DNA of 64,000 nucleotides. It comes from a virus. Both the position numbers and the translations under genes were made by a program. Positions 47,902-49,825 of the stretch are shown piece by piece. The notes under the pieces are model-generated. The model did not search any database. It saw only the letters and a list, made by a program, of their open reading frames with translations, and was not told the origin of the DNA. The DNA is taken from the IMG/VR virus record IMGVR_UViG_3300044982_000128, positions 1-64,000 of that record; one strand, 5' to 3'. Positions within the stretch are counted from its first letter, which is position 1; the number at the start of each line of letters is the position of its first letter.

Positions 47902-48190
47902 GCACGAAGCGCCGCGGCAACCCCAACTGGGGCCGGTCTGTCGATCAGATGCCCATCATGCCCGTTTCACCTTCCGGCTGGGACATGCTTCTCTACCGGC
48001 TTAACCTGAGTCCGGACAAGGCGCTCAGTAATCCGCAGGTCAGGGATTATATCCTCAAGCACCATCGCAATCGATTCGTCCCCGAGAAGGTTCTCGAACA
48101 TTTTTCGCTTGATACCCGCTTCTTCGATTGATCAAATCAACTCACCCGTCTTTCACGAATTCAGTGTACGATTCTCAGTGGAGTCCAAAC

Positions 48191-48733
48191 ATGGCTCATG
48201 ATCGTTACCTTCTCGAACTGCTCGACACCTGCCTCAAGACGATCGAGCGCCAGACCAGGCGCCTGGACCACGAGGCTCAGGAAGATCGTGAGACCCTCCG
48301 CCTGATTCAGCACGAGCTACACACCATCGCAGAAGAGCTTCAGTCCCCTCCCACTCTGCCTCCCCCGCCGCCCTCAAACCTCGCAACCAGCATCAGTTTC
48401 AAGGAGACCTCTATGCTTCCGACCACAGGTGGCAACACCCTTGTCTACACCGGCACTCTGGCCCCCGCGGGTTCAGTATTTGCGCCGGACGCAACCTTCA
48501 CTGTTTCAAGCAACGATCCGGCTGTCCTGCCCACCGTGGACGCGACCGGCTTGATCGTCACCGTTCCGCTGCCTACCGGCTGGGTGGAGTCGACGACCAC
48601 TCCTCTGGCCATCGCCTACACATCCGCGAGTATTAGTACTGGCCAGACGTTGACTGCGACGATTACACCGAGCGCGCCGCCTCCGCCTCCCCCGGTCTTG
48701 GCAACAAGCATCGGTTTCACACAAACGACCTAG
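48191..48733 (+). CDS. coiled-coil plus Ig-like protein with possible nested start at 48413
   Basis: GGAG RBS at 48180; internal AAGGAG-N6-ATG; repeated PPPP..LATSI.F motif. Confidence 0.6.
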   Translation: MAHDRYLLELLDTCLKTIERQTRRLDHEAQEDRETLRLIQHELHTIAEELQSPPTLPPPPPSNLATSISFKETSMLPTTGGNTLVYTGTLAPAGSVFAPDATFTVSSNDPAVLPTVDATGLIVTVPLPTGWVESTTTPLAIAYTSASISTGQTLTATITPSAPPPPPPVLATSIGFTQTT

Positions 48734-49150
48734 TTCTCCCTGCAGCGGCGCAAGTCTGACGCATGGACACCGTCGCTGCAAACGGTTCTCGGACCTAAAC
48801 CGAGTGGTGGAGGGACGGTCACCACGATGCCCCCAAGTTAAGCATGTCAACGCTGTAGGGAAGTGATTTCGGACGCGGGTTCGATTCCCGCCATGTCCAC
48901 CAACAAGCCCTTGCTGCGCGGGGCGGCTATTGATACGTCAATCCGTGATGCAGAGTTCAAGGGCTTGTTTGTGGGCATGCCAAGGTTTCGACGGAATCAG
49001 CGAACTCCAGTTTCATGCCGGGATTGATGCTCACCGTAACGAGAATCAAACTGCAACTGCGGAACCTTTCGCATTGCCGATGGCTGCCTAAGAAACAACC
49101 ATCCGAGGTTTGGCCGCGTTCCTTGTCAAAGAATACGCGGTAAAGGAAAG
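48734..49150 (+). ncRNA. ssrA: circularly permuted (two-piece) tmRNA
   Basis: T-arm GCGGG-TTCGATT-CCCGC then CATGTCC-A-CCA ends at 48902; the partner 5' end GGGCATGCCAAGGTTTCGAC starts downstream at 48973; G3-U70 pair; tag frame 49059-49091 AEPFALPMAA-stop. The start of the acceptor piece is approximate. Confidence 0.9.
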
Positions 49151-49177
49151 GGCTCCAGCTTCGGCTGGGGCCTTTTT
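49151..49177 (+). terminator. Rho-independent terminator after tmRNA
   Basis: GGCTCCAGC-TTCG-GCTGGGGCC-TTTTT. Confidence 0.9.
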
Positions 49178-49178
49178 G

Positions 49179-49207
49179 TTGACAATACATTCCAATCGTG
49201 ACATGAT
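49179..49207 (+). promoter_or_regulatory. sigma70-type promoter
   Basis: TTGACA-N17-CATGAT, 6 nt before ATG 49214. Confidence 0.65.
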
Positions 49208-49213
49208 TAATCC

Positions 49214-49825
49214 ATGACCCGCGATCCCATCCCCCCGCTTCCACCTCAAATCCTTTCTACACAATCTCTGCTCGCCGCGCGCGATCTGCTTTCTCCGGCT
49301 GACTTCCGCCTGCGCCTGCGCAAGACCCTGCTGGCCAACCCGAATCTGACTCTGCTCCAGGTGGCGCGGGAACTCAAAGTCACCCGGCAGTGCGTCGGCG
49401 CCATCGTCGGCCGCCTGAACCGTTCCACCGGCAAACCCGCGATCAAGCGAGAGCAAGCCAAGGCCAAGATGGCCGAGCTGCGCGCCATGGTAGCCGCCGG
49501 CGAGTCCGCGGAGCATGCAGCGAAGGAACTGGGGATCAGTCTGGGCCAGGCGATGACGCTGGGCTTTCGATCAAAGGCTGTGCGAGCGGTCCACGGAACG
49601 CAGGCGCGATCGGCCGCCGGGTGCGGTTGCTGGCGTTGTCGACGCGCGGCAGGTATTGCTGTTCCACGTGGAACAAAGATGGATTCGCGAGCGAAGGCTG
49701 AGGTTCTCGACCTTTTGGCCTACGTGGACCCGGATTCGGGAGAAGGTTTGAGCCAGAGACGAATCGGCGAGATGGTCGGTGCAGGGCAGGCTGCGATTTC
49801 GAGGATTGCGAGGGCAGCGGAATGA
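49214..49825 (+). CDS. multi-HTH DNA-binding protein
   Basis: Three HTH-like segments (TLLQVARELKVTRQCV, HAAKELGISL, SQRRIGEMVGAGQAAISRI) and an HG...GCGCWRC zinc motif. Confidence 0.7.
   Translation: MTRDPIPPLPPQILSTQSLLAARDLLSPADFRLRLRKTLLANPNLTLLQVARELKVTRQCVGAIVGRLNRSTGKPAIKREQAKAKMAELRAMVAAGESAEHAAKELGISLGQAMTLGFRSKAVRAVHGTQARSAAGCGCWRCRRAAGIAVPRGTKMDSRAKAEVLDLLAYVDPDSGEGLSQRRIGEMVGAGQAAISRIARAAE

Follow-up and report, generated by a model that had tools for sequence, protein, structure and literature searches.

A phage-borne two-piece tmRNA gene, probably a divergent form of the betaproteobacterial type, located in front of a resident phage terminator

The locus and the parts of the permuted gene

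The stretch of DNA analysed here (the window, 64,000 nt) comprises bases 1-64000 of the virus record IMGVR_UViG_3300044982_000128 from IMG/VR, which is 76,838 bp long, has direct terminal repeats (DTR) and is rated 100% complete. The genome carries a replication module with PolA, primase, helicase and exonuclease, no tyrosine integrase was found across the complete 76.8-kb record, and the phage is virulent-looking. PolA is 55% identical to that of Ralstonia phages, which may be taken as a weak hint to a betaproteobacterial host; when it was compared to bacterial genomes, the only matches were in Firmicutes prophages at 31-41%, and these allow no host prediction. The provirus record L011, whose permuted tmRNA has a similar tag end, contains no related polymerase. 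The locus of interest is located on the plus strand between two protein genes. The upstream gene (48128..48733, stop codon TAG at 48731-48733) encodes 201 aa without a match to any Pfam family, while the downstream gene (49214-49825) encodes an HTH/sigma-70 region 4-like protein according to Pfam. The latter is preceded by a promoter-like sequence, TTGACA-17-(TG)CATGAT at 49179..49207, which was detected by a promoter scan and is kept in relatives. It lies outside the tmRNA and marks the end of the unit.

Between these genes, ARAGORN called a permuted tmRNA (tmRNA*) at 48810-49182 with the tag ATAEPFALPMAA. The Rfam model tmRNA_permuted (RF04321) matched 48842-49091 over its full length (model positions 1-213) with 94 bits, well above the gathering score of 47, while the standard model RF00023 reached only 34 bits (gathering score 47), confined to the 3’ tRNA-like half and with nothing resembling pk3 or pk4. 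In addition to the score, the locus has the features expected from RF04321: the CCA half is located upstream of the 5’ acceptor strand and is connected to it by an intervening segment (IVS), the G3-U70 pair is present, and a stop-terminated tag ORF follows the pk1 position. SmpB was found nowhere in the whole 76.8-kb genome, so that its absence, first noted for the window, holds beyond it. Thus, the ARAGORN and Rfam matches, together with a complete phage record without SmpB, bear out the preliminary description of a phage-encoded, circularly permuted two-piece tmRNA without smpB.

The acceptor piece (48842..48902), as defined by the RF04321 and RF01850 alignments and the sequence itself, contains the P2 3’ strands GCATG (48842-48846) and TGATTTC (48864-48870), the T-arm (48875-48891), the acceptor 3’ strand CATGTCC (48892-48898), the discriminator A (48899) and an encoded CCA (48900-48902). 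It is followed by the IVS of 70 nt (48903..48972; fold z = -2.9), which would be removed on maturation. The IVS is closed by a stem of 11 bp (48903-48913 / 48958-48968), or by the perfect 12 bp reported previously if the pair A48902-T48969 is counted. The 5’ part of the coding piece (48973..49052, Rfam alignments) starts with the acceptor 5’ strand GGGCATG (48973-48979), which pairs with CATGTCC, giving G3-U70, and harbours the SmpB/D-loop-like region GGTTTCGAC as well as the P2 5’ strands GGAATCA (48993-48999) and CATGC (49014-49018), which pair with TGATTTC and GCATG, respectively. In line with the preliminary description, the sequence and the RF04321 alignment place the 3’ end upstream of the 5’ end, and the G3-U70 pair and both P2 pairings are intact, as are all tRNA-like identity elements.

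At the pk1 position, Rfam predicts a hairpin (49019-49036) with one mismatch in its 4-bp stem, and a second stem between TTGAT (49024-49028) and ATCAA (49045-49049) is possible. The score of the corresponding knot was reached by 123 of 500 shuffles. The pk1-like element proposed before is therefore only weakly supported from this single phage sequence. The tag reading frame (49053..49091), which had been proposed previously, was recovered by ARAGORN and in the Rfam alignments. Read from a GCA resume codon it encodes ATAEPFALPMAA and ends with the stop codon TAA at 49089-49091; the Rfam alignment sets the resume codon at GCG 49059 in the same frame, resulting in the 10-aa tag AEPFALPMAA. The resume codon is ambiguous because of a 6-nt tandem duplication, AACTGC-AACTGC, at 49049-49060.

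Downstream of the tag an H-type pseudoknot, pk2, is located at 49104..49141. Its stem S1 is formed by CGAGG (49104-49108) and CCTTG (49121-49125), its stem S2 by GCCGCGT (49113-49119) and ACGCGGT (49135-49141), and loop 3 is TCAAAGAAT. At the level of RNA the order is thus CGAGG, GCCGCGU, CCUUG (49121-49125), UCAAAGAAU and ACGCGGU (49135-49141). A blind scan of the window for H-type knots recovered exactly this structure as the best one, with a score matched by 5 of 500 shuffles, and the hairpin which RF01850 places at pk2 is fully paired in the phage sequence. The knot with the CCGCGT/ACGCGG stem claimed earlier is therefore present; the conserved partner of its CCUU loop is the upstream CGAGG at 49104-49108 and not AAGGAA at 49143-49148.

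Since a permuted order could also arise by misassembly, we considered this possibility. Words sampled from the stretch were searched in sequencing runs, where the largest share found was 0.10, and contigs from soil metagenomes were compared. Contig X4 record 16 covers 48731-48943, where leader, acceptor piece, CCA and part of the IVS follow each other, with approximately 92% identity, and contig X2 record 9 covers 48756-48892 with approximately 96% identity. In contig X1 record 3 (1569 nt, 18x depth) the acceptor piece (48839-48903) is followed by the coding piece (48968-49051), again in the permuted order, and 86 unrelated nt replace the 64-nt IVS core. Because these independent contigs carry the same arrangement, an assembly artefact was rejected. 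Searches for still closer relatives or a donor gave little: BLAST of the insert described below against all 150 fetched loci returned T-arm matches only, a metagenome scan for a donor or close relative yielded two contigs sharing the universal T-arm and acceptor only, the phage-style layout pattern had no match in bacteria, and the RNA run X5 contained relatives and the universal T-arm only.

Insertion into a phage operon and proposed maturation

Two viral contigs (L022 and L023) contain both flanking genes with 74-77% amino acid identity and lack a tmRNA, and eight further viral contigs contain the upstream gene at 49-70%, also without a tmRNA. The comparison with L023 shows how the gene is embedded. 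The intergenic order of L023 is TAG-TTCTCCCTGCAGC-AAGAAAAGG-terminator-TTGACA, and that of the window is TAG-TTCTCCCTGCAGC-[48747-49141]-AAAGGAAAGGG-terminator-TTGACA. The left junction TTCTCCCTGCAGC (48734..48746; alignment read by eye) is thus resident intergenic sequence common to both phages, and the tmRNA corresponds to a 395-nt insertion, 48747-49141, the right end of which coincides exactly with that of pk2, the final element of the inserted DNA. Downstream of it, 49142..49177 is present at the same place in L022 and L023. This part contains AAAGGAAAG, followed by a terminator detected by a terminator scan (stem 49151-49159 / 49164-49172, loop TTCG, T5 at 49173-49177), and in the two tmRNA-less contigs the terminator is found at the same site with a compensated stem. 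According to the comparison of L023 with the window, AAGGAA and the terminator (49151-49177) are therefore resident phage sequence, reused as the 3’ end of the coding piece, and the terminator stands in for the terminal hairpin of the tmRNA lineage described below. The terminator hairpin attributed to the coding piece in the preliminary description does exist, but was not acquired with the gene. As read from the aligned junctions, the insertion site is between the stop codon of the upstream gene and the terminator of this gene.

How the phage tmRNA is transcribed, processed and charged, how it makes use of host SmpB and what its benefit is, we can only infer. The promoter scan revealed no promoter-like site in front of the tmRNA gene. 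The precursor would be transcribed by read-through from the upstream genes of the rightward operon and would end at the resident terminator. The closing stem of the IVS could present both ends as in a tRNA precursor, so that host RNase P may cut 5’ of G48973, and 3’ processing may trim the acceptor piece to the encoded CCA (48902). An additional cut near 48839-48842 would separate the acceptor piece from leader and upstream mRNA. The two pieces are predicted to be kept together by the acceptor stem and the P2 pairings. The tmRNA could then be charged by host AlaRS via G3-U70 and brought to stalled ribosomes by host SmpB and EF-Tu, where the tag (A)ATAEPFALPMAA would be added or, with GCG 49059 as the resume codon, (A)AEPFALPMAA. 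A likely benefit is that ribosome rescue is kept up during infection, for example upon host transcription shut-off or when defence nucleases cut mRNA.

Alternatively, the gene could have been captured recently as a passenger and now be decaying or unused, or it could be a decoy which titrates host SmpB or AlaRS without tagging. The closest phage relatives live without a tmRNA, pk1 is weak, an own promoter is missing, the tag ends with PMAA instead of the usual LAA, and the resume site carries the 6-nt duplication. Moreover, a phage tmRNA consisting of the TLD only (DS6A) inhibits the host tmRNA (PMC4131195, PMC11915505). However, all identity elements, pk2 and the IVS stem are intact, and so is the tag, which is in frame and ends with Ala-Ala and a UAA stop. 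Further, the tRNA-like domain and the pk1 region (48973..49052) are 92-95% conserved in contig X1 record 3, although IVS, leader and tag are replaced there, and because of this the functional core looks constrained. We therefore regard a passenger or a decoy as unlikely.

Break point and lineage

The preliminary description proposed that the break point is unusual, resulting from an independent permutation between pk2 and pk3. To judge this, the architecture of the betaproteobacterial (beta) lineage was rebuilt from real gene sequences. The comparison set comprised more than 120 bacterial permuted genes, mostly from Rhodocyclales (Dechloromonas, Azonexus, Thauera, Azoarcus, Accumulibacter, Propionivibrio) and also from Gallionellaceae, and about 17 viral contigs from IMG/VR in which the gene is arranged alike. 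The Rfam model of this lineage, RF01850 (beta_tmRNA), aligned to the phage gene with all of its 331 positions (48798-49175; 63.3 bits, E = 1.3e-18). This is below its gathering score of 84, but RF01850 was the best of the lineage-specific models of the clan.

The layout of pk2, whose loop motifs are those of the Rhodocyclales and viral beta-type genes, recurs across 38 non-redundant genes. In these genes S2 is fully compensated (GCUGACUG/CAGUCAGC, GGGGGAAU/AUUCCCCC, UGCAGGUUGUU/AACAACCUGUG, GCAUU/AAUGC and others) and S1 co-varies (CGAGG/CCUUG, UGAGG/CCUUA, UGGGG/CCUUA). The bacterial sequence after the tag is CCG(G/A)GGC-UGCUG-A-GCCUUGUUACCAAAGA-CAGC, followed by the terminal hairpin, and the pk2 signature common to the Rhodocyclales genes and the phage gene is C(G/A)GGG...CCUUGU..A..AAAGA. 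A second shared feature is the position of the IVS stem: in 108 non-redundant genes (15 viral, 93 bacterial) it begins 0-2 nt downstream of CCA and stops 3-6 nt upstream of G1. Its median length is 10 bp in the viral and 8 bp in the bacterial genes, as compared to approximately 5.6 bp for shuffled sequences, and the stem sequence changes from gene to gene in a co-varying manner. In the phage gene the stem begins directly after CCA and stops 4 nt before G1 (offsets 0 and 4). Finally, two-piece tmRNAs typically have PK1 and PK2 on their coding piece, a break after pk2 being the norm (PMC3985003). Based on the RF01850 alignment, the shared pk2, the IVS-stem rule and this typical composition, the break after pk2 is the known one, and the claim of an unusual break point was abandoned.

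A tree was calculated from the core of the mature RNA, with IVS, leader and post-tag region removed, using 107 non-redundant rows and no alpha or cyano outgroup. In this tree, which accordingly is to be read as one of the sampled rows only, the phage gene groups with the viral genes L008, L004, L016 and L007 (support 81/86) on a long branch, and it is excluded from a clade of 75 chromosomal Rhodocyclales rows (95/88). Its mature-RNA core is at most 57% identical to that of any sampled gene. Because of this low identity and the long branch, the placement is only moderately supported. It groups the gene among phage-borne genes of the beta type and, together with the shared beta-type features, speaks against an independent permutation. 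Thus, the gene most likely belongs to a permuted lineage already described, whose break point is the same.

One argument for a separate origin was the region ahead of the acceptor piece, in which pk3/pk4-like elements had been proposed (48784-48834). If so, the gene would represent an independent fourth permutation, in which a one-piece tmRNA was broken between pk2 and pk3 and kept pk3 and pk4 on its acceptor piece. Indeed, a GC-rich leader of 95 nt with hairpins (48747..48841), which arrived with the insertion, precedes the acceptor piece. It is kept in close relatives from two soil metagenomes, in one of them with a change from G.U to G-C in the first stem. The strong divergence of the gene and its score under the RF01850 gathering score are in line with this view, too. 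However, the fold of the 108 nt ahead of the P2 strand is not more stable than that of shuffles (z = -0.83), and knot potential is at the level of chance, since the best H-type knot in 48781-48841 was matched by 125 of 500 shuffles and the leader knot scan by 276 of 500. In contig X1 record 3 a related tmRNA is preceded by unrelated sequence upstream of 48839, and contig X4 record 16 has a 7-nt deletion in 48815-48828, inside the proposed hairpin. RF00023, as mentioned above, finds nothing similar to pk3 or pk4, and the end-to-end RF01850 alignment, the pk2 signature and the IVS-stem offsets shared with the beta lineage, as well as the normal break after pk2, all argue against an independent event, which we consider very unlikely.

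In Rhodocyclales there is no leader: a sigma-70 promoter (TTGAAA, 17 nt, CATAAT or TACCAT) abuts CATGGTTGTAATTCC. Because the promoter is located directly in front of it, the acceptor piece of these bacteria begins at the P2 strand, and the model positions 1-51 of RF01850 correspond to promoter DNA rather than to RNA structure. Judged from the compared sequences, the leader appears to be no conserved part of the tmRNA, and its assignment as pk3/pk4 is not supported. A degenerate tRNA in the leader was also considered and rejected, as there is just an 8-nt resemblance (CCAAGTTA) to the junction of tRNA-Leu and tmRNA in phage Mendera, and neither ARAGORN nor Rfam calls a tRNA.

Most likely, then, this is an authentic two-piece tmRNA of the betaproteobacterial type in a divergent, phage-borne form, which was acquired as a 395-nt insertion and would mature as proposed above. 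The number of origins of tmRNA permutation is not changed by it. Its value lies elsewhere: the boundaries of the insertion can be read exactly against sister phages without a tmRNA, the phage’s own terminator is found in place of the terminal hairpin of the lineage, and neither a flanking tRNA nor a promoter defines the 5’ end of the acceptor piece. The locus thus represents a natural experiment on the minimum needs of a two-piece tmRNA cassette within a foreign transcription unit.

Comparison with known two-piece tmRNAs

Catalogues of tmRNAs encoded by phages go back to the mycobacteriophage cases (PMC4131195). In the count of Buchholz et al. there are 133 unique phage tmRNAs, 53 of them two-piece, and this work also showed that the alpha, beta/gamma and cyano lineages are common to bacteria and their phages (PMC9004378). 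In the 2025 tmRNA database, 79 sequences are from phages and 11,946 are permuted (PMC11915505), and the processing of tmRNA into two pieces has been described (PMC3985003, PMC11915505). The beta-type lineage goes back to Sharkady & Williams 2004, as cited in PMC9004378 and PMC3985003. Since PMC9004378 and PMC11915505, as well as the ssrA annotation of Menderavirus, document two-piece tmRNAs of phages as a known kind, the gene described here is a divergent new example among them.

With the chromosomal beta-type genes of Rhodocyclales (RF01850) it shares the order acceptor piece, hairpin IVS, coding piece, and a coding piece made up of a pk1-position hairpin, the tag, pk2 and a terminal hairpin. 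It differs in the T-stem (GCGGG instead of GGGGG), in the length of the IVS (70 nt as compared to approximately 29 nt), in the 95-nt leader at the place where Rhodocyclales have a promoter before the P2 strand, in the tag (ATAEPFALPMAA instead of ANDE(R/Q)FA(L/V/I)AA), and in the use of the resident phage terminator instead of an own terminal hairpin. With the one-piece tmRNA (RF00023) it has in common the tRNA-like domain, G3-U70, the Ala-Ala end of the tag, the pk1 and pk2 positions and the presumed dependence on SmpB, while the circular permutation and the apparent absence of pk3 and pk4 set it apart.

Comparable genes occur in the Stenotrophomonas phages Mendera, Bhz51 and Marzo, which carry an annotated two-piece ssrA and, like the phage described here, no SmpB. 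The ssrA of Mendera/Bhz51 is the closest match in annotated phages, with 74% identity over 122 nt from the T-arm through the IVS to the 5’ acceptor; it is permuted as well and exceeds the RF01850 cut-off with 92 bits. Common to the Mendera-like genes, the IMG/VR copies and the phage gene are a T-stem reading GCGGG, the beta-type pk2 and a long IVS of 56-113 nt that is closed by a stem. Most phage-borne copies reach the gathering score of RF01850, whereas the phage gene does not. Further, in Mendera and in the viral contig L153 a tRNA located directly before the acceptor piece defines its 5’ end; in our phage no comparable flanking tRNA was found next to the acceptor piece, and its place is taken by the protein gene and the leader. 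The ssrA of the Methylophilales phage Melnitz is different, as it is of the alpha type and linked to a glutamine riboswitch (PMC9004378). As to bacteria, genomes of Stenotrophomonas, Herbaspirillum and Cupriavidus with a permuted copy also hold a strong standard ssrA (192-216 bits), and thus permuted cassettes enter hosts with a one-piece tmRNA, while one Azonexus genome contains the permuted form only.

That the locus is an attP-type mimic of host ssrA for site-specific integration is extremely unlikely. Integration into tmRNA genes is frequent and ssrA fragments are often found in phages (PMC4383910, PMC9004378), and the provirus record L011 harbours a permuted tmRNA whose tag ends similarly, with ALPMAA. 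However, the complete genome with its direct terminal repeats lacks a tyrosine integrase, the gene is complete and no 3’ fragment, and none of 185,579 species genomes contains its exact 3’ half (32 nt).

It is tempting to speculate, although we give this idea a slim chance, that phage-borne beta-type tmRNAs form their own mobile clade, which would spread among phages whose hosts have either form of tmRNA, as a cassette based on RNase P and 3’ processing that fits into any operon, and that in this phage the co-inserted leader of 95 nt and the unusual ...ALPMAA tag confer a phage-specific function. If this were true, such tmRNAs might, for instance, re-route or spare tagged proteins in the conflict with ribosome-stalling defence nucleases rather than act as a plain back-up of ssrA.

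Sequence features in and around the window tmRNA gene

At the left junction of the 395-nt insertion (48747-49141) that constitutes the two-piece tmRNA gene, a 10-bp stem (48741-48750 / 48771-48780) spans the border, its 5' strand being resident sequence and its 3' strand part of the insert. In a relative (record 9 of sequencing run X2), the G.U pair of this stem is replaced by G-C (48773 T>C). The stem could serve to process or stabilise the 5' end of the acceptor piece, or it could have arisen by chance.

In the coding piece, a 6-nt tandem duplication (AACTGC-AACTGC, 49049-49060) is located exactly at the resume codon, resulting in two in-frame candidates: GCA at 49053, with a tag of 12 aa, and GCG at 49059, with a tag of 10 aa.

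Directly 3' of the terminator we found a strong promoter-like site of the extended -10 type (TTGACA-17-TG-CATGAT, 49179-49207), which is kept in the sister phages lacking a tmRNA. It drives the gene at 49214-49825, whose 203-aa product has HTH and sigma-70 region 4 matches and is possibly a phage transcription regulator.

The promoter contained in the Rfam beta_tmRNA model

Consensus positions 1-51 of RF01850 (cUUGAag...17 nt...UAuAAU...) match the chromosomal gene's sigma-70 promoter, which lies approximately 45-85 nt 5' of the T-arm in L033, L041, L110, L042, L053 and other loci. The first approximately 51 positions of the model are a promoter and not transcribed RNA; its "5' leader" should not be counted within the acceptor piece.

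Diversity of permuted tmRNAs in phages, metagenomes and bacterial genomes

The Mendera-like Stenotrophomonas phages harbour their two-piece tmRNA inside a tRNA array (L003:4511-4600, L001:2800-2975). The tRNA-Leu(tag) ends with CCCACCA, the acceptor piece follows 4 nt on (AGTT-ATGGTTGT), and a tRNA-Thr is located 3' of the coding piece. With this location, all ends of the tmRNA would be freed by tRNA processing.

A further permuted tmRNA, on a metagenome contig (VFSW01419888.1, L153:608-1142), has a tRNA-Met directly 5' and an intervening segment of 113 nt. Its predicted tag, at 31 aa (DTEKMTASKQVARKAKVIAFPAKTSAMQIAA), is exceptionally long.

In contigs of a ~92% relative from runs X1 (DNA) and X5 (RNA), window positions 48830-48902 are joined to 48983-49021, and just 13 nt (TGAGGGGCCGTCC) separate the CCA from the GGTTTCGAC region. 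This arrangement would amount to a permuted tmRNA whose acceptor stem differs and whose intervening segment measures about 3 nt. It was found in a metatranscriptome, too.

Some genomes with a permuted copy also contain a standard ssrA, and the tags of these copies end unusually: with ...AYGT, ...AVGT or ...AFGT in the Oxalobacteraceae (Herbaspirillum, Duganella and Noviherbaspirillum; L084, L051, L096, L097, L098, L103, L122), and with ...LLVA, ...LLAA or ...LRVA in Stenotrophomonas (L066, L108, L118). Probably, the copies in both groups are second tmRNAs carried by prophages, and their degradation signals are non-canonical.
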